A program made the translations under genes and the position numbers. A DNA stretch of 64,000 nt from Nostoc sp. DedSLP01 (GTDB lineage: Bacteria > Cyanobacteriota > Cyanobacteriia > Cyanobacteriales > Nostocaceae), in assembly GCA_034530875.2 (NCBI GenBank), contig JAVRCJ020000013.1, forward strand, positions 1 through 64,000, in the 5' to 3' direction. A model generated the notes under the pieces. The model was not told the origin of the DNA. It worked only from the letters and a program-made list of their open reading frames with translations, and ran no database searches. Every line of letters begins with the position of its first letter. Within the stretch, counting starts at the first letter, position 1. Of this stretch, positions 5,106 to 20,829 are shown in pieces.

Positions 5106-5269
5106 TATAGTAAAAAACAGTAAAAATACTGTATGTTTCTTGTGTAACAGAGTTTAGTCTAAAGCAAATAAATTTGGAGCTAGCAAATAAGACAAATAGT
5201 AAGTAAAACTACCAAAATTAATTGCAGCCCAAATTAAAGACTGAGCATTTATTTCAAGAGGTGTTCCTA

Positions 5270-5461
5270 ATGATTCGCGAAACAAACGATCGCTCCATGC
5301 AAGAGCAAGAAAGCAATAGCTCACAATTAAGTGAGGATGTCTCTGCTAGAACCTCATTCCATCCTCCAAATATTAAGTCAGCTATTGATTGGGAAAAACC
5401 AGATTTTGACGAGCTTGACTTGTGCATGGAAATCACCACATACATTCTCAACGGGCAATAA
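5270..5461 (+). CDS. pqqA: PQQ precursor peptide PqqA with long N-terminal extension (63 aa)
   Basis: C-terminal WEKPDFDELDLCMEITTY has the W-x-K-P and E-x-x-x-Y motifs. GAGGT SD 7 nt before ATG 5270. Directly upstream of pqqB. Confidence 0.88.
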   Translation: MIRETNDRSMQEQESNSSQLSEDVSARTSFHPPNIKSAIDWEKPDFDELDLCMEITTYILNGQ

Positions 5462-5483
5462 TTTAAATACCCAGTTTAATTAC

Positions 5484-5591
5484 TAGACCTTTTGTAAAAC
5501 TATTTTTACAAGAGGGGGAAGGGGAAAAGGTTAAAGGGAAAAGCCTTTTTCTTACGCCTTTCCCCTTTTCCCCACTTCTGCAAGAAGTCTG
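5484..5591. mobile_element. TAGAC...GTCTA-ended MITE-like element, copy 1
   Basis: Ends TAGACCTTTTGTA and TGCAAGAAGTCT; homologous to 9667-9775 and 48342-48440, which are inverted relative to it. Confidence 0.65.
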
Positions 5592-5624
5592 GTGAATTAA
5601 AATCTCTACCTGCTTTTTGTTTTT

Positions 5625-6530
5625 ATGTTCCTAAAAATTCTTGGTACTGCCGCAGGTGGCGGTTTTCCTCAGTGGAATTGTAACTGTCCCAATTGCCAAG
5701 CAGTCCGCACAAGTCGCGCAGGTGTCAATTGGCTCAACCAGTCATCAATTGCGGTGAGGAAAAACAATGAGCCTTGGTTTTTAGTCAATGCCTCTCCAGA
5801 TATACGCCCGCAGTTAGAGAGATTGCGGGAAGGGCAACCGTCTACAATTCGGTCAAGCCCGATCGCTGGTGTTTTATTAACTGATGCAGAGATTGACCAT
5901 ACCACTGGCTTGGTTATCCTAAGAGAATCTACGGAAAAACTGCGCGTCTACGGTACTGAAACAGTACATAAGGCTCTGACAGACGGTTATCCCCTGCTGT
6001 CCACGTTAGCAAGCTATTGTGGCGTGGAATGGTCTGTACTCGAACCTCACGTACCTATAAACCTGGGGTTAAATGGAGCAGATGGTTTGGAAGTGGAGGT
6101 ATTTCCACTAGCAGCCAAACCACCAAAATATATGCGCCATAAGACAAATTTAGATGGAATTTGGGTTATAGGTTTAACATTTCGCGATCGCACAACTGGC
6201 AAAGTTGCAACTTATGCTCCAGGTTTAGCGGAAATTGACGAAAAAATCCTAGAGCGATTCGAGTCTAGTGACTGCATATTAGTAGATGGCACTTGCTGGC
6301 AAAATGATGAGTTATTGGCTTTAGGAGTATCAAAGCTGCAAGCCCGCGATATGGGACACTTACCCCTAAACGTTAGTTTAAAAAGCCTTGCTAATTTGAG
6401 CCGTCCTCGGAAAATTCTCGTTCACATCAACAACACAAACCCAATCCTGTTACCTGATTCAGAGGAACGCAAAATTGTAGAAGCCGCAGGAGTAGAAGTT
6501 GGTTACGATGGGCTGACCATCGAATTGTAA
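5625..6530 (+). CDS. pqqB: PQQ biosynthesis protein B (MBL-fold hydroxylase)
   Basis: LGTAAGGGFPQWNCNCPNC, NASPD, DHTTGL, DGT, MGHL, HINNTNP. Confidence 0.96.
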   Translation: MFLKILGTAAGGGFPQWNCNCPNCQAVRTSRAGVNWLNQSSIAVRKNNEPWFLVNASPDIRPQLERLREGQPSTIRSSPIAGVLLTDAEIDHTTGLVILRESTEKLRVYGTETVHKALTDGYPLLSTLASYCGVEWSVLEPHVPINLGLNGADGLEVEVFPLAAKPPKYMRHKTNLDGIWVIGLTFRDRTTGKVATYAPGLAEIDEKILERFESSDCILVDGTCWQNDELLALGVSKLQARDMGHLPLNVSLKSLANLSRPRKILVHINNTNPILLPDSEERKIVEAAGVEVGYDGLTIEL

Positions 6531-6551
6531 TTTTGAGGTGGAATAAAAAGC

Positions 6552-7271
6552 GTGTTGGAATTAGTTAAAGAACCTCTCCCTTGGACTCAGACAGAACTAG
6601 AGGCAGTATTGCGATCGCAACATCGCCGCTATCATCATCTGCATCCATTTCATGCGAGGATGAACAGCGGTGATTTAACGCCAACAGAAGTCCGACGCTG
6701 GGTAGCAAATAGATTTTATTATCAAAAAAGTATTCCCCTAAAAGATGCTGCCATCATCTCAAACTGCCCCGATTTAGAAGTGCGGCGAGAATGGATTCAA
6801 CGCATCATCGACCATGACGGTCAAGGCGACGACGAAGGTGGTATTGAAGCATGGTTAAAACTCGGTAAAGCAGTAGGATTGTCTCGTCAAGAACTCTTAG
6901 AAGACCAGCACGTACTGCCAGGAGTTCAATATGCAGTAGATGCCTACGTTAACTTTTGTCGCACTCGACCCTGGATTGAAGCGGTAGCTGCATCGCTAAC
7001 CGAACTTTTTGGCCCTGATGCAATTCGAGTCCGCCTAGCTGCATTAGAAGAACATTATCCCTGGATAGATCCTGCTGGATTTGACTACTTCCGGGCGCGT
7101 CTTTACCAAGCCCCCAGAGATGCCCAATACGCCCTCAAGCTAGTCCTCAAACACTGCCGCACTCGCGAATCTCAGGAGAAAGCAGTACAAGCTTTAGTAT
7201 TCAAGTGTAATTTATTGTGGAGTCAATTAGAAGCGATCGAACGTGGCGATACTAGACCGCAAGAAGTATAG
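6552..7271 (+). CDS. pqqC: Pyrroloquinoline-quinone synthase
   Basis: HPFH, WVANRFYYQ..IP.KDAAI, RIIDHDG, GGIEAW, SLTELF, HYPWI, QAPRD. Confidence 0.96.
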   Translation: MLELVKEPLPWTQTELEAVLRSQHRRYHHLHPFHARMNSGDLTPTEVRRWVANRFYYQKSIPLKDAAIISNCPDLEVRREWIQRIIDHDGQGDDEGGIEAWLKLGKAVGLSRQELLEDQHVLPGVQYAVDAYVNFCRTRPWIEAVAASLTELFGPDAIRVRLAALEEHYPWIDPAGFDYFRARLYQAPRDAQYALKLVLKHCRTRESQEKAVQALVFKCNLLWSQLEAIERGDTRPQEV

Positions 7272-7326
7272 GAGGAAATGAGGAGATGGGGAGAAAGAAT
7301 AAGCAATACCCAATATCCAGCACATT

Positions 7327-7360
7327 AATTGCGAATTACGAATTACGAATTACGAATTAA
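7327..7360. repeat. (AATTACG)n heptamer array abutting the pqqD start
   Basis: taattgcgaattacgaattacgaattacgaattaa then ATG. Confidence 0.8.
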
Positions 7361-7645
7361 ATGAGTATTATAGACAATCATGCCCGACCGCGCTTAGTTC
7401 GTGGCGTGCGTTTGCGCTGGGATGATGTGAGAAAGCAACATTGGCTCCTGGTTCCTGAAGGGGCGCTGCAATTAAACTCCACAGCAGCAGCAATTCTAGC
7501 ACTTTGTAATGGCGAGCGAACTCTCAACGCGATCGCAACAGAATTAGAGAAACAGTACCAAGGCGAAAACCTGCTAGAGGACGTGCGCCATCTGCTGTCT
7601 CGAATTAGCCAACGAGGACTATTAATTGTAGAAGGGAACAGCTAG
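7361..7645 (+). CDS. pqqD: PqqD peptide chaperone (RRE domain)
   Basis: RPRL.RGVRLRWD, LLVPEG..LN.TAAAILALC.GERT, 94 aa, between pqqC and pqqE. Confidence 0.95.
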   Translation: MSIIDNHARPRLVRGVRLRWDDVRKQHWLLVPEGALQLNSTAAAILALCNGERTLNAIATELEKQYQGENLLEDVRHLLSRISQRGLLIVEGNS

Positions 7646-7674
7646 CAGGCAGGAGATAAAAATGTTAATCCAGA

Positions 7675-7705
7675 TGTAGAGACGTTGCATTCCAGCGTCT
7701 CTACA
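7675..7705. repeat. REP-like palindrome
   Basis: TGTAGAGACG...CGTCTCTACA. Confidence 0.7.
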
Positions 7706-7755
7706 GAAATGTTGATATAGCGCCAATCGTTTTCGTACATAAAATCAGCAATCCT

Positions 7756-7784
7756 TAATTACGAATTACGAATTACGAATTAAT
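7756..7784. repeat. (AATTACG)n heptamer array abutting the pqqE start
   Basis: taattacgaattacgaattacgaattaat then ATG. Confidence 0.8.
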
Positions 7785-8885
7785 ATGACAATTTATAGAC
7801 CCTTAAGCTTAATAGCAGAATTAACCTATCGCTGCCCACTGCGTTGTCCCTACTGCTCCAATCCGCTTAATTGTGGCGATAGCCAGTATCGCCAAGAACT
7901 TTCTACAGAGGATTGGTTGCGAGTAATTCAGGAAGCCACAAACTTGGGTGTGTTACAGCTTGGCTTAACCGGCGGCGAACCACTGCTACGAAAAGACCTA
8001 GAATTAATTGTGGCAGCCGCCGCCAAAGCGGAACTATATACTACTTTGATTACTGCTGCTACCTTATTAACTCCAGAACGAGCTACACAGCTGCGTGATG
8101 CCGGACTCGATCACGTACAAATTAGCATCCAAGATAGTCGTGCTGCTGAGTCGGACTATATTGCTGGAACTCCTTGTTTTGAGCAAAAACTAGAAGCAGC
8201 AAGATTAGTAAAAGCTTTGGGTTTTCCGCTGACACTGAATTTTGTCCTGCATCGGCAAAACCTAGACAGAATTGAGGAGATTTTAGAGCTGTGTGAGGTT
8301 TTAAAAGCAGACCGAGTTGAATTAGCGAACACTCAATATTATGGCTGGGCATATCGCAACCGTAATGTTTTACTACCTACCCGCGAACAGCTAAAACGAG
8401 CAGAGGTCGCAGTGGCAGAGGCAAGAAAGCGCAACATCTGCCCAATGGGGATTTTATACGTGCTGCCTGACTATTATGAAGATTACCCTAAACCATGTAT
8501 GGGTGGGTGGGGTCATCGAGCTTTAGTTGTCGCTCCCAATGGCGATGTTTTACCTTGCCAAGCCGCTAGTTCGATTCCAGAATTAGAATTTGCTAACGTC
8601 CGCAATCATTCACTAGATTGGATTTGGTTTGAATCATCTGCTTTTAATCGCTTCCGAGGAACAGAATGGATGCCTGAGCCTTGCCAAAGTTGCGATCGCC
8701 GCGAGATCGATTTCGGTGGTTGCCGTTGCCAAGCGTTACTTCTGACAAACAGTGCCGCTGCCACCGATCCTGTGTGTCATCTCTCACCACACCATCACCT
8801 GATTACCACAGCCACAAAGCAAGCAAATCAAGAAAACTTCGATTCCCGCCCACCTTTGGTTTATCGCTCGATGCAAATGCATTGA
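7785..8885 (+). CDS. pqqE: Radical SAM/SPASM peptide cyclase PqqE
   Basis: AELTYRCPLRCPYCSNP, GGEPL, ELANTQYYGWA, PKPCMGGWG, CQSC...GGCRCQA...DPVC. Confidence 0.96.
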   Translation: MTIYRPLSLIAELTYRCPLRCPYCSNPLNCGDSQYRQELSTEDWLRVIQEATNLGVLQLGLTGGEPLLRKDLELIVAAAAKAELYTTLITAATLLTPERATQLRDAGLDHVQISIQDSRAAESDYIAGTPCFEQKLEAARLVKALGFPLTLNFVLHRQNLDRIEEILELCEVLKADRVELANTQYYGWAYRNRNVLLPTREQLKRAEVAVAEARKRNICPMGILYVLPDYYEDYPKPCMGGWGHRALVVAPNGDVLPCQAASSIPELEFANVRNHSLDWIWFESSAFNRFRGTEWMPEPCQSCDRREIDFGGCRCQALLLTNSAAATDPVCHLSPHHHLITTATKQANQENFDSRPPLVYRSMQMH

Positions 8886-9820: not shown

Positions 9821-10580
9821 GTGGCAATTGTCTGTGAGAGAGCAATGTTTACGACGAACTGTGCATAATAGTATCTCTACCCAAATTTATTGATGACTCG
9901 ATACATCTAAATGAGCGAAGGAATTATGGGGATTATTCAAGAGGCTTGAATCGATAGCAGAATAGCACACTTATTAACCGCTAACCGTTGATATTATTGG
10001 TTTTGGGTGTTGGGTGTCGAAAATGCAAATTAAAAAAATTTTTCACTTAATAGTTAATGACAACTAAACCAATAACTTTACAACTATATTTGTAAGACAA
10101 AATCCCATTAATATAGCAATATTGAACGAATGCTGAGGTTATCTTCTTATATAACCTGATTTTAGTTATTTTTCTTTTGTTTGCTAATGCTTATTGCTTA
10201 ATAAATCATCTTTAAAAAATCTACTTAAACACTTTATAGAAATAAAATTTTCTTAAGAACTACATAATTGTGTGGCAGATTTATGATAGTTATTAGCGAC
10301 CTAAATTTAATGCTTTTTTTTTTAGATAACCTGGCAAAGATTGGTTATGTATATGCCATAATGTCACGAGCTAGGCGTATATAAAGAAAGTTATTGTTAT
10401 ACTTCAACACCTAAGTGCGGAAGGTATCAGTATTGACTAAATAAAAATATAGTACTACTAGCTCAAACCGATCCATGAAAGACCGGATAAAGACCCATGC
10501 TATACCTAGCAATCCAAAGATTTGGGTCTAGATTTTGCTTATAGCAAAGTTGATTGAGTTATAGATTAGGAGGAAATTCG

Positions 10581-12437
10581 ATGCAATTGTTAGATTTGGC
10601 TAACCCTGAGGTTAAATTAACCTCTAAAACTGATAGTAACTTTATAGACTTAACAGCGGCTTACCCTCGACCATTGTTAAAGCGATCGCATTGGCAATCT
10701 TTAAATGGGCTGTGGAAATTCTCATTTGATGATGAGGGCAAATGTGTCGAACCCAGCGATCTAAGCCAATGGTCTCATCATATAGAAGTTCCCTTTGCGC
10801 CCGAATCTACCAAAAGTGGGATTGGTGATGAAGGTTTCCATCCCAACTGCTGGTACGAGCGCGAATTTGAAACACCATCAGGGGACGGCAGATTAATCTT
10901 ACATTTTGGTGCTGTGGACTATCGCGCTCGTGTGTGGGTAAACGATAAATACATAGGCGAGCATGAAGGCGGACACACCTCTTTCAGTTTCGATATTACT
11001 CGTGCCTTAAATCACAGCGGTACAACAAAGGTAACAGTGTGGGCGCACGACGATCCGCACGACCTCGCCAAACCTCGCGGTAAACAGGATTGGCAGTTGA
11101 AACCGCATAGTATTTGGTATCCTCGGACAACTGGTATTTGGCAGACAGTTTGGCTCGAGCGTGTAGCCGAAACTTATATTGGTAATCTTCGTTGGATTCC
11201 CGATTGCGAACGCTGGGAAATTGGCTTTGAAGCTGGGCTGGCTGGAAATTTACCGACTGCGGGCGTACAAATTAAAGTAAAACTTAGCACTGGCGATCGC
11301 GTCTTAGCCAGCGATACCTATGAAGTATTCAACGGGGAAATTACCCGCCGCATAGTTCTGGGCGACCCGGGGATTGACGACTGTCGTAATGAATTACTCT
11401 GGAGTCCAGAAAAGCCAACCCTAATAGATGCCCTAATTCAGCTATGGGATAAAGATATTCTTTTAGATGAAGTGCAATCTTATACAGCGATGCGGACTGT
11501 TAGCATTCAGCGCGATCGCTTTATGCTCAACGGTCGTCCCTATTATCTGCGGCTAGTTCTCGACCAAGGTTACTGGCCTGATACGTTAATGACTCCACCT
11601 AGCGACGACGCATTACGGCGTGATGTCGAACTTGCTAAAGCTATGGGTTTTAACGGTGTACGCAAACACCAAAAAATTGAAGACTCCCGCTTTTTATATT
11701 GGGCAGACGTTTTAGGGTTGTTAGTATGGGAGGAGATGCCCAGTGCTTACCGTTTCACGCCCAAAGCCGTGGAACGCATGACCCGTGAGTGGACGGAAAT
11801 CATTAAACGAGATGTCAGCCATCCATGTATTGTGGCGTGGGTGCCATTTAATGAATCCTGGGGAGTGCCAAATTTGGTTGAGACAGCCGCCCATCGTAAC
11901 TACGTATTGGCAATGTATCACCTAACTAAGACTCTCGATCCGACTCGCCCAGTAATTGGTAACGATGGTTGGGAAAGTACGGATACCGACATCCTCGCTA
12001 TTCACGACTACGATCGCAAGCCCGAGCGATTAGCCCATCGCTACAGACCAGATATTCAGATATCGGATTTATTTGAGCGTAGCCGTCCCGGAGGACGCAT
12101 CCTCACCTTGGATAACTATCCCCATCAAGGACAGCCAGTGATGTTAACCGAGTTTGGTGGTATCGCTTATGCTCCTCTCGACCAACCTAATGCCGATGGA
12201 GCTTGGGGATATGAAAACTGCTCGAATATCTCGGAATTAGAAATGAAATACGCTGCTTTGCTCAAAACAGTTAATGATATTGAGCTATTTAGCGGCTTTT
12301 GTTACACGCAATTGACAGATACTTTCCAAGAAGCCAATGGATTATTGTACGGCGATCGCACGCCGAAATTTCCCATTGAGGCAATCCGCGCTGCAACCCT
12401 CTCAGGACAAGGATTATGTACTCCCACAAGCTGTTAA
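10581..12437 (+). CDS. Glycoside hydrolase family 2 (beta-galactosidase/glucuronidase-like)
   Basis: SLNGLWKF, HFGAVDY, HEGG, GIWQTVWLE, RKHQK, acid/base FNESW, nucleophile LTEFGG. AGGAGG SD before ATG 10581, preferred over the TTG at 10554. Confidence 0.9.
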   Translation: MQLLDLANPEVKLTSKTDSNFIDLTAAYPRPLLKRSHWQSLNGLWKFSFDDEGKCVEPSDLSQWSHHIEVPFAPESTKSGIGDEGFHPNCWYEREFETPSGDGRLILHFGAVDYRARVWVNDKYIGEHEGGHTSFSFDITRALNHSGTTKVTVWAHDDPHDLAKPRGKQDWQLKPHSIWYPRTTGIWQTVWLERVAETYIGNLRWIPDCERWEIGFEAGLAGNLPTAGVQIKVKLSTGDRVLASDTYEVFNGEITRRIVLGDPGIDDCRNELLWSPEKPTLIDALIQLWDKDILLDEVQSYTAMRTVSIQRDRFMLNGRPYYLRLVLDQGYWPDTLMTPPSDDALRRDVELAKAMGFNGVRKHQKIEDSRFLYWADVLGLLVWEEMPSAYRFTPKAVERMTREWTEIIKRDVSHPCIVAWVPFNESWGVPNLVETAAHRNYVLAMYHLTKTLDPTRPVIGNDGWESTDTDILAIHDYDRKPERLAHRYRPDIQISDLFERSRPGGRILTLDNYPHQGQPVMLTEFGGIAYAPLDQPNADGAWGYENCSNISELEMKYAALLKTVNDIELFSGFCYTQLTDTFQEANGLLYGDRTPKFPIEAIRAATLSGQGLCTPTSC

Positions 12438-13519
12438 AGCCCGACGGACGCCAACTCAAATTATACAGTCGCTACCCAATTTCTAATCAGTTAGAAGCCC
12501 CCAGCCCTAGCAACGAGCCAGTGCAAGCTAATCCCCACCTGCGCTGGCACCCCTTGCGGGGGGAATGGGTAGCTTATGCCAGTCATCGTCAAGGGCGGAC
12601 ATTCATGCCACCCCCAGAATACAACCCCCTTGCACCTACTACTAACCCTGAGTTCCCAACGGAACTACCCCAAGGTAAGTACGACGTGGCAGTGTTCGAC
12701 AACCGCTTTCCCTCAATGGTTTCTACAGCCAACAATCCACCTCATACTATCGTGGAAACGTTGCCGGCTAATGGAGCCTGTGAGGTAGTGGTTTTTACCC
12801 AAGATGCCCGCGCTTCTCTGAGTTCCCTACAGTTGGATCATCTAGATTTGCTGTTGCAAGTATGGGGCGATCGCACCCGCGAACTCGGATTAAATCCGCA
12901 AATTCAATACGTGCTGCCCTTTGAAAATAAAGGTGTAGAAGTGGGTGTAACATTGCACCATCCCCACGGGCAAATTTACGCCTATCCTTTTGTACCACCC
13001 GTTCCAGCACGGATGCTGGCAATGCAGCAAGAGTATTATCAAGAACATCGGCGGGGTTTACTGCAAGACTTGATTCAGAAGGAAATTGCAGACGATCGAC
13101 GGATTATTTATCAAGATGAGTATGCGATCGCCTTTGTCCCAGTATGCGCCCGTTATCCTTATGAAGTCTGGCTTGCAACAAAAGAGCCAGTTGGCACCTT
13201 TACCGATTTGACTCCACAACAACGTTGGGGACTTGCCAAAGCCTTAAAAACTGTCACTCTTAAGTATGACGGCTTGTGGAATCGCCCATTTCCTTACTTG
13301 ATGGCTTGGTTTGGCGCGCCAACCGACGGTTTACCCCATCCAGAAGCGCATTTACACGCCCAGTTTTATCCCCCATATCGCACAAGCGAAAGGCTGAAGT
13401 ATCTCGCGGGAACCGAACTCGCAGCCGGGATGTTTGCCAATGATGCTTTACCAGAGGAAAAAGCCAAGGAACTACAAGCTGTGAAGGTGAATATTGAAGA
13501 GCCAGTTTCGGCGCGATAA
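12416..13519 (+). CDS. galT: Galactose-1-phosphate uridylyltransferase
   Basis: [28 protein letters not shown] active-site motif; overlaps the GH2 gene by 22 nt. Confidence 0.93.
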
Positions 13520-13795: not shown

Positions 13796-16024
13796 TTACC
13801 CAAATTTACCAGCGGTTGAAGCTATCAGGAATGCTGCATAAGTCAGGACGTAGCCGACTGTGAAGTGAGCTAGACCTACTAACCAGCCTTGGACAATGGA
13901 CAAAGCAACGGGCTTATCTTTCCACTTAACTAAGTTAGCCAGCGGAGTGCGTTCGTGTGCCCAGACTAGAGTTTCAATTAACTCTTGCCAGTAGCCACGC
14001 CAGCTAATGAGGAACATGAAACCAGTTGCCCAAACTAAGTGTCCGAAGAGGAACATCCAAGCCCAGACAGATAAATTACTTGTACCGTAGGGGTTGTAAC
14101 CGTTAATTAACTGAGCAGAGTTAGCCCAGAGGTAATCGCGGAACCAACCCATGAGGTATGTAGAGTTCTCATTGAATTGAGCGACGTTACCTTGCCAAAC
14201 GCCTAGATGCTTCCAGTGCCAGTAAAAAGTTACCCAGCCCAGGAGATTCAACATCCAGAACATAGCAAGATAGAAAGATTGTTCCCAAGAGGAAGTTTGG
14301 CAAGTACCGCCTCGACCAGGGCCATCACAGGGGAAGGTGAAGCCGAAGTCTTTTTTATCAGGCATCAATTTGGTACCGCGTGCATCCAAGGCACCCTTGA
14401 CACAAATCAATGTGGTGGTGTGCAGACCTAGAGCGATCGCATGGTGAACCAGGAAATCACCAGGGCCAATTGTCAAGAACAAGGAATTAGTACCGGCGTT
14501 AATCGCATCTACCCAGTTTGGTAACCAGACGTTACCGTAATTGGGCCAAGCTGTAGAGGCAATGCTATCTGGGTTAGATAATAAAGCATCCATACCATAC
14601 AGCAGTTTGCCGTGAGCAGATTGGATGAATTGAGCAAATACTGGCTCAATCAAAATTTGCTTTTCGGGAGTACCAAAGGCAACGACAACATCATTGTGGA
14701 CGTATAGCCCAAGGGTATGAAAGCCCAAGAATAGCGACACCCAACTCAGGTGAGAAATAATCGCTTCTTTGTGCTTGAGTACGCGGTCAAGGACGTTGCC
14801 TTTGTTTTGCTCTGGGTCGTAGTCTCGTACCCAGAAAATACCCGCGTGGGCAAACGCACCAATCATCAAGAACCCAGCTATGTACTGGTGATGAGTGTAC
14901 AGTGCCGCCTGTGTTGTGTAGTCCTTAGCGATGAAGGCGTAAGGAGGCAGCGAGTACATGTGCTGTGCGACTAACGAGGTAACAGTTCCCAACGCTGCCA
15001 AGTGTATGGATAACTGGAAGTGCAAGGAGTTGTTATAGGTGTCGTAAAGTCCTTGGTGCGGTAAGTTGAACTGACCTTCAGTAGGAACGCCAAAGAAATT
15101 TCTGGAGTTGAGCATTTCTTTGATGCTGTGACCAATCCCGAAGTTAGTCCGATACATGTGACCGGCAACAATAAAGATGACTGCGATCGCTAAATGGTGA
15201 TGAGCTATATCGGTCAACCACAACGATTCAGTTTGGGGATGAAAACCACCCAAGAAAGTCAAAATTGCCGTTCCTGAACCTTGGGATGTGCCAAACAGAT
15301 GCCCTGGAGTATCAGGATTCTGGGCATATACACCCCAATCGCCTCTCCAGAAAGGTGCTAAACCTGCTGGGTGCGGCAAAGTTGTGAGAAAATTATTCCA
15401 ACCAACATGCACCCCACGAGATTCGGGGATAGCAACGTGAACTAGGTGTCCTGTCCAAGCTAGAGAGCTAACACCAAATAAACCTGCTAAGTGGTGATTC
15501 AAACGAGGTTCAGCACTCTTGAACCAAGCCAAACTAGGGCGGTACTTGGGTTGCAAGTGCAGCCAACCAGCAAACAAGAACAATGCTGCTAACAATAGGA
15601 GGAAGACCGAACCCTGATAGAGGTCATTGTTCGTCCGCATCCCAATGGTGTACCACCAGTGGTAGACACCAGAGTAAGCAATGTTAACAGGATTGCTAGC
15701 GCCACCTTGGGTAAAAGCTTCTACTGCTGGTTTACCAAAGTGGGGGTCCCAGATAGCGTGAGCGATTGGACGAATATGCAGCGGATCTTTAATCCACTGT
15801 TCAAAGTTACCTTGCCACGCTACGTGGAACAACAAACTAGAAGCCCACAGAAAAATGATTGCTACGTGACCGAAATGAGTAGCGAAAATCTTTTGGTAAA
15901 GATTTTCTTCGGTCATGCCATCATGGCTTTCAAAATCATTTCCCGTAGCGATCGCGTACCAGATCCGACGCGTAGTCGGGTCTTGTGCGAGATCCTGGTT
16001 AAATTTTGGATACTTTGTGGCCAT
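13796..16024 (-). CDS. psaB: Photosystem I P700 apoprotein A2, stand-alone divergent copy (PsaB2 type of heterocystous cyanobacteria)
   Basis: [33 protein letters not shown]. No psaA upstream. Variant [11 protein letters not shown] and VQGWLVG segments. Confidence 0.97.
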
Positions 16025-18273: not shown

Positions 18274-19365
18274 ATGAACGAGGAAGTCTCCAAAAAGCTG
18301 GATTTAATTAGGCAAACCTTGCGTGAAAATGAGGTGCAAGGTTTGCGTTTGCGCGGTACAGACTGGTTTGCCTGGGTGACGGCTGGTGCTTCTAACACGG
18401 TGTTGCTGACTGCTGAAACTGGGGTGGCAGAAGTATTAGTAACTACTGAAGGTGCTTGGGTATTGACGGATGAAATTGAAGCCCAGCGTCTTATAGATGA
18501 AGAATTACCTACTAATTTTCAGGTGTACGTCAACCCTTGGGCTGATGGTGCTGCTGCGCGTGAGTCTTTCGTTCGCGATGTAACTGGTGGTGGGAAAGTA
18601 ATTAGCGATCGCCCCATTTCCAATTTAGAAAACCCTTTACCTCCAACTCTACAAACTCATAAACGGGTAATGATGCCAAGCGAGCTAGAACGATATCGCC
18701 AAGTCGGACAAAAAGCGAGTCAGGCAATGACAGAGGTACTCAAAGCCGCCAAGCCAACTTGGACAGAATATCAATTAGCGGGTGCAGGTGCAGAAGCATT
18801 ATGGGGAAAAGGGTTGCATCCAGCACTGACACTGGTAGCAGGTGAAAGGCGTTTACCACTATACCGCCACGCTACAGCTACCGCAGAACAGATTGGACAG
18901 CAAGCGATGCTGGTGTTCTGCGCTAGAGGTTACGGTTTGTATGCAAATCTGACTCGATTTGTTTGTTTTAGCCAGCTTTCAGGCGAACAAGCCGAATTGC
19001 ATCGTCATGTGCGGGAAGTTGAAGCAGTAGTTTTGAATTTGTCCCAACCCGGAACTAGTCTTGACAAAGCTTATTACGCGCTAGGTCAGGCTTACGAACA
19101 GCACGGATTTCCGAATGCCATCCGCGAACATCATCAGGGAGGAACCACTGGGTATTTAGCGCGAGAAGTCGTAGCAACTCCAAGTACTAATGACACTTTG
19201 GCAGAAGGTATTGCTGTTGCTTGGAATCCCAGTTTACGAGGGGCAAAGGTTGAAGATACTTTTGTAATTCTCAACGATGGAAAGTTGGAAAATCTGACTT
19301 TTGATGCAGATTTTCCTAGTGTTGAAGTAGAAGGAAGGTTACGCCCCGTACCTTTATATAATTAA
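18274..19365 (+). CDS. M24/creatinase-fold protein, non-canonical active site
   Basis: Pita-bread fold motifs YANLTR, HHQGG, WNPS, KVEDT; ends 5 nt before galK. Confidence 0.8.
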
Positions 19366-19370
19366 AAACT

Positions 19371-20453
19371 ATGGATTTTCAACAAATATTCGGTCAACCA
19401 TCTGAAACTCTAGCCAGTGCGCCGGGAAGAGTAAATTTACTCGGCGAACATACAGATTACAACGATGGGTTCGTTCTGCCGACTGCGATTCCGCAATCAA
19501 CTACGGTAGAAGTAGGTTTTAATAGCGATCGCCAGCATCACTTTTACTCGGAAAATCTCAACGAACACGTAACTATTTTAGATAGCAATCATACACCGTC
19601 TGGATTTGCCAGTTATATTTTTGGCTGTCTTGAGGTATTACAAAAGGCAGGGTATAAAATACCTTCGCTTTCTATGTACGTCAAATCCTCGGTGCCTATG
19701 GGTTCGGGTTTGTCTAGCAGTGCAGCCTTAGAAGTAGCAACGCTACGGGCAGTACGGCAACTTTTAGACCTTCCCATTGATGATGTTGAAATTGCCCAAT
19801 TAGCCCAGCAAGCAGAAATTCACTATGCTGGCGTGCAGTGCGGCATCATGGATCAGATGGCTTCTAGCTTGGCTGATACTGAGCATATTTTGTTTTTAGA
19901 TACTCGTACTTTAGAACGCCGCGTGCTGCCTTTGCCTGAGAATGCAGAGATTTTAGTGATTGATAGCGGCGTGCCTCGTACACTTGCAAGTAGCGGCTAT
20001 AACCAGAGGCGTGCTGAGTGTGAAGAAGCGGCGCGATCGCTAGGAGTTAAAGCCCTACGAGATATTACTGACCCTCAAGTAACAGAAAAACTCATCGAAC
20101 CACTGCGACGGCGTGCGCGTCATGTGATTACAGAAGATAACCGCGTTTTAGAAGTATTGCAGGGGGTATCATCTGAACGCTTTGGTGAATTAATGAATGC
20201 ATCCCACGCCAGTTTGAGAGACGATTATGAAGTCTCCGTACCTCCACTAGATACTCTAGTCGAACTATTGCAAAAAACTCCGGGAGTGTTTGGTGCAAGA
20301 TTGACTGGTGCTGGTTTTGGCGGTGCTTGTGTAGCTTTGGTTGCAGCCGGTGAAGCGACAAGAATTGCAACCCATGTCCTCGAACAATATAACCAAGCAG
20401 GTTACAACGGACGAATTTTGGTTCCTTCTTTGGAGTTAAGCGATGCAGCCTAA
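19371..20453 (+). CDS. galK: Galactokinase
   Basis: [43 protein letters not shown]. Confidence 0.96.
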
Positions 20454-20829
20454 AGTAGTTTATGGAAACGCAGCCGTTGAAGGTGTAAATCGTTGGGGAT
20501 GGTTCATCGGTCACTTTATTACCCCTGAAGACGATCCGCGTTCCACAGAAATACTAGAAGTAAAATGGGCTGTTCTTAAAGCAGGTGAAAGCAGAACTGA
20601 TTGGGCAGTAAATAACCAAGCTGCTACACTTTCAATTCTCATTAATGGAGAATTTCGCCTGCAATTTGAAGATAGAGAAATTATATTAACTCGTGAAGGT
20701 GATTACGTTCTTTGGTGTGCCGGCGTACCCCATTGGTGGGTTGCTGAGTCTGACTGCACAATTTTGACTGTTAGATGGCCTTCAAAGCCAGGTGATAGTG
20801 TTGCATTGCCTGGAGTGTCAAAGAGTTAG
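20443..20829 (+). CDS. Small cupin-like protein
   Basis: [10 protein letters not shown]...[10 protein letters not shown]...PHWW cupin pattern; overlaps galK by 11 nt. Confidence 0.65.

Follow-up and report, generated by a model that had tools for sequence, protein, structure and literature searches.

An intact, long-resident pqqABCDE operon in the heterocystous cyanobacterium Nostoc sp. DedSLP01 and candidate users of its predicted product

The closest described systems for synthesis of pyrroloquinoline quinone (PQQ) are the proteobacterial pqqABCDE(F) genes, represented by Klebsiella pneumoniae (PqqC structures PDB 1OTV/1OTW; PMC2294125), and the pqqABCDE genes of Actinobacteria, of which those of Thermoleophilia (Solirubrobacterales) lie nearest to the locus studied here. 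We analyzed 64,000 nucleotides of Nostoc sp. DedSLP01 (contig JAVRCJ020000013.1, positions 1 to 64,000 of the forward strand; hereafter the window), in which positions 5270 to 8885 hold five open reading frames (ORFs), all on the + strand, contiguous and in the canonical order pqqA-pqqB-pqqC-pqqD-pqqE. These genes resemble the proteobacterial system in their five families, their order and a Glu-X-X-X-Tyr precursor (PqqC is 50% identical to that of Klebsiella, and PqqE and PqqB are 52–56% and 38–45% identical to proteobacterial orthologs), but differ from it in having no linked pqqF, a PqqA of 63 amino acids (aa), an Ile in place of PqqC His154, and an oxygenic phototroph as host. The actinobacterial genes, whose Thermoleophilia members form the sister clade, likewise lack His154, have no pqqF among the genes screened for and encode a PqqE 60–65% identical to that of Nostoc. 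We conclude that the Nostoc operon is real, intact and long resident, and we put at roughly 70% the probability that it yields PQQ through the established pathway, with the help of a borrowed protease, and that this PQQ activates six-bladed sugar dehydrogenases of the periplasm whose genes lie at other places in the genome. The operon comprises:

5256..5263, + strand: Shine-Dalgarno-like AAGAGGTG, seen in the sequence 6 nt upstream of the pqqA ATG
5270..5461, + strand: pqqA, PQQ precursor, 63 aa (TIGR02107 and PF08042 above cut-off)
5625..6530, + strand: pqqB, metallo-beta-lactamase-fold hydroxylase (TIGR02108, 373.9 bits vs cut-off 245)
6552..7271, + strand: pqqC, cofactorless oxidase (TIGR02111, 315.4 vs cut-off 240; PDB 1OTW, E 8.5e-79)
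7361..7645, + strand: pqqD, peptide chaperone, a recognition element (RRE) of peptides made on ribosomes and modified after translation (RiPPs) (TIGR03859, 83.3 vs cut-off 46)
7785..8885, + strand: pqqE, radical S-adenosylmethionine (SAM)-SPASM Glu-Tyr cross-linker (TIGR02109, 522.5 vs cut-off 381.35)

All five Pqq proteins exceeded their NCBIfam equivalog cut-offs with concordant Pfam matches, including the short PqqA (TIGR02107, 30.5 bits vs cut-off 20), and together with contiguity on a single strand this bears out the five genes in canonical order that a first-pass annotation had read from the letters alone. PqqD fell under the narrower NF002535 cut-off (64.6 vs 101). Each of pqqA, pqqB, pqqC and pqqD is single-copy in the host genome. 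Other RRE or radical SAM RiPP systems (mycofactocin, lasso, GeoRSP) were rejected because their maturase and chaperone models scored far under cut-off (e.g., TIGR03962, 106.7 vs 265).

The catalytic motifs, described as intact in the first-pass annotation, are indeed kept in PqqA, PqqB and PqqE, with one departure in PqqC that is weighed below. PqqA carries the core WEKPDFDELDLCMEITTY, in which E54-I-T-T-Y58 (Glu-X-X-X-Tyr) follows an N-terminal extension of ~40 aa. PqqB keeps the C19/C21/C24 zinc-cysteine motif and the cavity residues D91, H92, Y169, H245 and H267, all invariant in an alignment that took as reference the conserved residues named in the available text of PMC2294125. In PqqE, aligned with three proteobacterial PqqE, the radical SAM cysteines C17/C21/C24 (CxxxCxxC) are invariant and the SPASM cysteines C238, C258, C300, C303, C313, C315 and C331 are kept. 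Counted from the likely start, cyanobacterial PqqA ORFs span about 52–65 aa, whereas the length is mostly 24 aa in Thermoleophilia and some 28–47 aa in other Actinobacteria; the available text of PMC2294125 reports 23–39 aa. The extension varies among genera, yet its reading frame is open and selected in Nostoc, and the pqqA ATG is retained as an identical start across Nostoc loci.

Ratios of nonsynonymous to synonymous substitution (dN/dS) were calculated between the window and 21 same-genus loci, each value being pairwise to the window sequence and hence non-independent. They came to 0.095 for pqqB, 0.061 for pqqC, 0.127 for pqqD and 0.113 for pqqE and, within PqqA, to 0.019 for the core and 0.224 for the extension. 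The genes pqqA-E are under purifying selection. The operon span also holds elements typical of the host (strand not assigned):

6184..6191, also 6611, 7529 and 8692: highly iterated palindrome (HIP1) octamer GCGATCGC, one each in pqqB, pqqC, pqqD and pqqE
7334..7354: AATTACG short tandem repeat in the pqqC/pqqD spacer, one of 108 such arrays genome-wide
~7757-7777: second AATTACG array, of a type recurrent genome-wide

The HIP1 positions and genes agree exactly with those first annotated, and their number (4 observed vs 3.2 expected from genome density) is that of the host; the repeats between genes, which had been taken to be of host type, do recur genome-wide (55–112 blastn hits per spacer). 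With purifying selection across 21 Nostoc loci, these features support the long residence that had been proposed. The host, described as heterocystous, has HetR and three NifH above cut-off. The NifH copies (TIGR01287 above cut-off) lie at G000:C18:109747, C13:182824 and C7:100816 of the host genome, which suggests alternative nitrogenases. GC content at third codon positions (GC3) places the pqq genes at the 65th–96th percentile among long ORFs of the genome, codon adaptation is unremarkable except in pqqD, where it is low, and the host's Pqq proteins, PqqE among them, are 91–94% identical to those of named Nostoc genomes.

A silent relic or a contaminating contig would fit the patchy distribution, the low codon adaptation of pqqD and the damaged copies in two relatives, one with a split pqqB and the other with a stop in pqqE. 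This explanation is extremely improbable and already largely refuted: the operon shares its contig with psaB, glnA, apcF and petB/D-like genes, has the HIP1 density of the host and dN/dS far below 1, and has 83–98% identical orthologs in 21 other Nostoc genomes. One genome, G548, has two pqq operons (L146 and L153), one of them with pqqB in two pieces ~180 bp apart. A promoter and terminator scan of the locus gave 6 promoter-like sites against 8.5 by chance and nothing usable. Contigs from four RNA libraries of four studies, from relatives ~90% alike, overlap parts of the operon, one of them (3,456 nt) covering pqqA to pqqD; DNA carry-over is possible, and none of them is counted as evidence.

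We then examined how widely the operon occurs, with all counts including the host genome. PqqE scored above cut-off in 44/389 genomes of the family, in 6/68 genera, and in 22/127 genomes of the host's own genus. PqqC turned up in 10/281 genomes sampled over the order, with hits in four other families, and in 5/401 sampled over the phylum. For locus comparison, 40 of the family's 44 further PqqE sites were fetched (21 Nostoc, 19 other genera), and pqqA-E were all detected in 38 of these 40, both misses being at contig ends. In a comparison with named collections (the 80 best out of 572 loci, together with 8 records of a plasmid collection), the top 23 of those 80 were 22 cyanobacteria and one contig titled Gracilibacteria, and 54 of the remaining 57 were Actinomycetota. 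The contig in question (L035, titled Candidatus Gracilibacteria) has a pqq operon and dehydrogenase that fall within the cyanobacterial clade, and is likely mis-binned or mislabelled.

The phylogeny of PqqB, PqqC and PqqE had been named as a check on the operon. In a concatenated tree of the three proteins (80 rows, FastTree), cyanobacterial Pqq sequences formed one clade (support 1.0), sister to Thermoleophilia (1.0), and a PqqB tree (25 rows, rooted on Proteobacteria) gave the same arrangement (cyanobacterial clade 99/99; sister to Thermoleophilia 100/98). Within the PqqB tree, Nostoc is placed not beside other heterocystous genera but together with Chroococcidiopsis (99/96) and Aliterella (99/97). 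A topology holding the family together was rejected by the approximately unbiased test (p-AU 0.0006; the constrained group was picked after earlier trees had been seen). Because Nostoc PqqB stands apart and family unity is rejected, its placement points to transfer among cyanobacteria or to old paralogy with loss. A topology holding Actinomycetota together was not rejected (p-AU 0.0625) and sampling was limited, so that Actinobacteria are not established as donor.

The name PqqB is already in public use for proteins of Nostoc, Chroococcidiopsis, Aliterella, Hyella, Waterburya, Trichodesmium and Rivularia, and cultured carriers of the operon include Nostoc ATCC 43529, N. linckia, N. flagelliforme FACHB-838, Calothrix NIES-267 and Chroococcidiopsis CCALA 051. 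A literature search, with subscription journals largely outside it, found no description of pqq operons or PQQ synthesis in cyanobacteria, although a 2026 preprint that maps PQQ biosynthesis genes on genomes including Cyanobacteria may list them already. Tee et al. 2020 (PMC7367855), in its available text, describes two Microcoleus genomes without the operon and proposes reliance on Proteobacteria, as the accessible part of a review citing it repeats; a soda-lake study, in the portion available, assigns PQQ clusters to heterotrophs, and cyanobacteria are absent from the main text, as available, of a survey of PqqU (PMC12124388). The novelty that had been left open thus divides: the operon is neither rare (44/389) nor free of automatic annotation, yet no paper on it was found. 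The pathway is known, and the host group is auto-annotated for it but apparently undescribed.

From protein families and gene neighborhoods, PQQ is likely consumed by a six-bladed sugar dehydrogenase in the periplasm. Outside Nostoc, an aldose dehydrogenase gene of the Asd/YliI type adjoins pqqA or sits between pqqA and pqqB in 15/19 loci; two more have an AA12-like gene directly after pqqE, and the last two are short contigs. The linked aldose dehydrogenase matches PDB 7CDY/2G8S (E about 1e-67 to 1e-69), shares the His, RN and RVRDV motifs of E. coli Asd/YliI (2G8S), and is present in 21/22 PqqE-positive genomes outside the genus. Actinobacterial loci, by contrast, often neighbor eight-bladed quinoproteins. 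Twenty-six genomes of the family keep the operon-type aldose dehydrogenase but match no PqqE, which may be what remains after the biosynthesis genes were lost repeatedly.

A search of the host genome for quinoproteins, as first suggested for this locus, returned four PF07995 proteins and one PF01011 protein, all unlinked to the operon. The window itself yielded no pqqF/G, tldDE or PQQ dehydrogenase among its ORFs (family scans: 18 ORFs), as had been reported. The idea of an unlinked sugar dehydrogenase has gained from two results, the genome holding unlinked six-bladed candidates and other genera having a dehydrogenase gene in or beside the operon. Two candidates are of the AA12/sorbosone-dehydrogenase type: G000:C48:35414-36817 (C48) and G000:C5:200764-202113 (C5), the latter a predicted lipoprotein by eye. 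Like the AA12/sorbosone/2-ketoglucose dehydrogenases (CcPDH, 6JT5/6JWF; TrAA12, 6H7T), they share the fold (in C5 by model) and PQQ-binding residues. By motif, C48 has 9/9 of the CcPDH PQQ-binding residues given in the available text of bioRxiv 10.64898/2026.07.10.737718 (R102, H203, R258, N259, H365, H392, W395, N396, R438), and C5 has 8/9, with Arg372 in place of CcPDH His560. The structure model of C5 (predicted local distance difference test, pLDDT, 78.5) is six-bladed and ranks AA12 enzymes first (6H7T, E 1.7e-20, TM 0.63), and in public annotation its relatives go by sorbosone or PQQ-dependent sugar dehydrogenase. C5 differs from solved AA12 enzymes in its ~20% identity, in the Arg just noted and in an Asn-Glu-Arg-Asp...Asp metal set (N281-E282-R283-D284 + D293, by motif). 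The same preprint, in the text available, ties this set to lanthanide binding and requires all nine PQQ residues. The C5 protein corresponds to L096:1768-3114 (- strand), a near-universal AA12-type lipoprotein of Nostoc that is also found in non-producers.

Two further PF07995 proteins, at C15:42895 and C1:337873, were rejected as users, as most CcPDH motifs are missing from them. The second (G000:C1:337873-341376) is a 1,167-aa protein with a C-terminal PF07995 propeller, preceded by repeats that we take to be three PA14-like and Calx-beta-like. PQQ could instead serve the eight-bladed protein resembling polyvinyl alcohol (PVA) dehydrogenase at G000:C52:39377-41056, the sole PF01011 protein of the genome; its N-terminus looks like a signal, it contains a vicinal Cys pair, and it is similar to type I quinoproteins (1FLG, E 1.6e-12). 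We consider this very improbable: the alcohol dehydrogenase model scored far under cut-off (107.6 vs 480 bits), and, since the protein occurs in just 3/22 producers (and in 12/105 non-producers, so that its presence is not associated with the operon), it fails to account for the operon genus-wide and was rejected as the main user. Within G000:C52:28023-41056, its gene stands just after four large ORFs that may resemble genes for the baseplate of an extracellular contractile injection system.

From the observed genes, their selection and distribution, gene linkage in relatives, and the fold and residues of the candidates, we infer PQQ production, a protease, export, a substrate and an electron acceptor. 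By analogy with the known families, PqqD would present PqqA to PqqE, which would join Glu54 to Tyr58, and a protease not linked to the operon, either TldD/E or one of the M16 peptidases, would excise the cross-linked Glu-Tyr pair. PqqB would hydroxylate the excised pair, and PqqC would ring-close and oxidise the intermediate to PQQ. Supplied to the C48 and C5 proteins, PQQ would allow aldoses or 2-keto sugars to be oxidised beyond the inner membrane. Candidate proteases are at hand, with five TldD/PmbA and ten M16 peptidase matches in the host genome, none linked to the operon.

Several results weigh against this account. No PqqF ortholog and no membrane glucose dehydrogenase scored above cut-off in the host genome; the operon-type aldose dehydrogenase of other genera was not found there, and only weakly in 1/126 congeners; and a quinoprotein gene lies close by in only 1/21 Nostoc loci, where a relative of C48 stands next to pqqE. 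The two AA12-type proteins occur in 123/127 and 114/127 genus genomes, and both in 22/22 PqqE-positive ones. Because they are equally common in non-producers (C5: 101/105), co-occurrence is unable to single out the PQQ user. Finally, PqqC has Ile158 in place of the Klebsiella active-site His154 in the alignment, a residue that, according to the available text of PMC2294125, shifts into the active site upon substrate binding. Alignments keep H88, R161, Y179 and R183, the equivalents of Klebsiella His84, Arg157, Tyr175 and Arg179. His154 counts as part of the proposed O2 pocket.

The substitution is not peculiar to this strain. The column holds Ile in 59/59 cyanobacterial rows (with some genomes entering twice), Ile or Met in 47/47 readable rows of a mostly actinobacterial set (5 further rows being mis-hits of the pattern), and His in 5/5 readable proteobacterial rows. 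Because it is clade-wide in cyanobacteria and common to Actinobacteria, the absence of His154 reads as an old shared state, not decay, and since PqqC still passes the TIGR02111 cut-off we treat the residue as not family-defining. That same split between proteobacterial and other rows would also be expected if PqqC without His154 halted before PQQ, yielded a variant quinone throughout the cyanobacterial and actinobacterial branch, or needed a helper oxidant. We think this improbable, however, as the other listed active-site residues are kept and the operon adjoins ordinary PQQ dehydrogenase-type genes in both phyla. Pqq clusters of Streptomyces and Mycobacterium make PQQ.

PQQ might also act mainly as a free molecule, either as an antioxidant during desiccation or in strong light, or as a public good shared with lichen, plant or bacterial partners, with the producer's own dehydrogenases secondary. 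The operon is under purifying selection in Nostoc lacking the aldose dehydrogenase linked to it elsewhere, and Nostoc PqqB is closest to that of Chroococcidiopsis and Aliterella, which are drought-tolerant. The available text of PMC12124388 describes PQQ as a community good. We nevertheless judge such a role unlikely: dehydrogenase genes are linked in 17/19 loci of other genera, the host genome holds several candidate quinoproteins, no exporter gene adjoins the operon (no search aimed at exporters was made), and the neighboring hsp20 is not a conserved neighbor. The antioxidant and partner-supply ideas of the first-pass annotation found no direct support.

Flanking genes vary widely among the 22 genus loci. 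As the flanking host genes are also rearranged, we do not infer mobility of the operon from this variation. Galactose-use genes (GH2 hydrolase, galT, an M24-like protein, galK and a cupin) lie 1.7 kb downstream of pqqE, at window positions 10554-13519 and 18274-20829, and the GH2-galT block is kept in two relatives, away from their pqq operons. A functional link of the operon to GH2/galT/galK or hsp20 was rejected, two relatives with both keeping them at separate places. Between galT and the galK-containing genes, at window positions 13796-16024 (- strand), is a second, stand-alone psaB with no adjoining psaA; its protein is 89% identical to psaB of the psaAB pair on C20. A psaB2 is known in Nostoc.

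In returning to PQQ synthesis for sugar dehydrogenases encoded elsewhere, a comparison with the Microcoleus mat model (Tee et al. 2020, PMC7367855, in its available text) is instructive: PQQ-dependent 2kgdh-like genes are likewise present in cyanobacteria there, but unlike the Microcoleus genomes it describes, both DedSLP01 and at least one genome of Microcoleus (L027; pqqD with pqqE) encode pathway genes. By genome counts, about 1 in 6 Nostoc species can encode the PQQ set, and nearly all carry predicted PQQ-dependent sugar-dehydrogenase-like proteins. Most Nostoc, with AA12-type proteins and no operon, would depend on outside PQQ, and DedSLP01 would be self-sufficient. A bolder and doubtful extension is that there is a distinct cyanobacterial PQQ branch, with long-leader PqqA and His154-less PqqC, that spread sideways and made some oxygenic phototrophs net suppliers, and that in Nostoc it feeds the near-universal periplasmic lipoprotein dehydrogenase with its lanthanide-type site. 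If true, a cyanobacterium would have, in the C5-type lipoprotein, an enzyme that depends on rare earths.

What this analysis adds to a known pathway is the cyanobacterial clade, the split into producers and borrowers, the dehydrogenases linked to the operon, an unusually long precursor and a PqqC without His154. The natural His154-less PqqC and long PqqA offer probes for O2 activation and leader recognition, and the cyanobacterial operons bear on the use of pqqC as a marker of heterotrophic phosphate solubilisers. If the operons work, some cyanobacteria would be makers of PQQ and not only borrowers, as the searchable literature treats them; around a tenth of the family's species would make PQQ, and most relatives would keep apo-enzymes only. 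Such a split between producers and scavengers inside one phylum of primary producers would matter for how sugars are oxidised and phosphate is set free in soil crusts, mats and symbioses.

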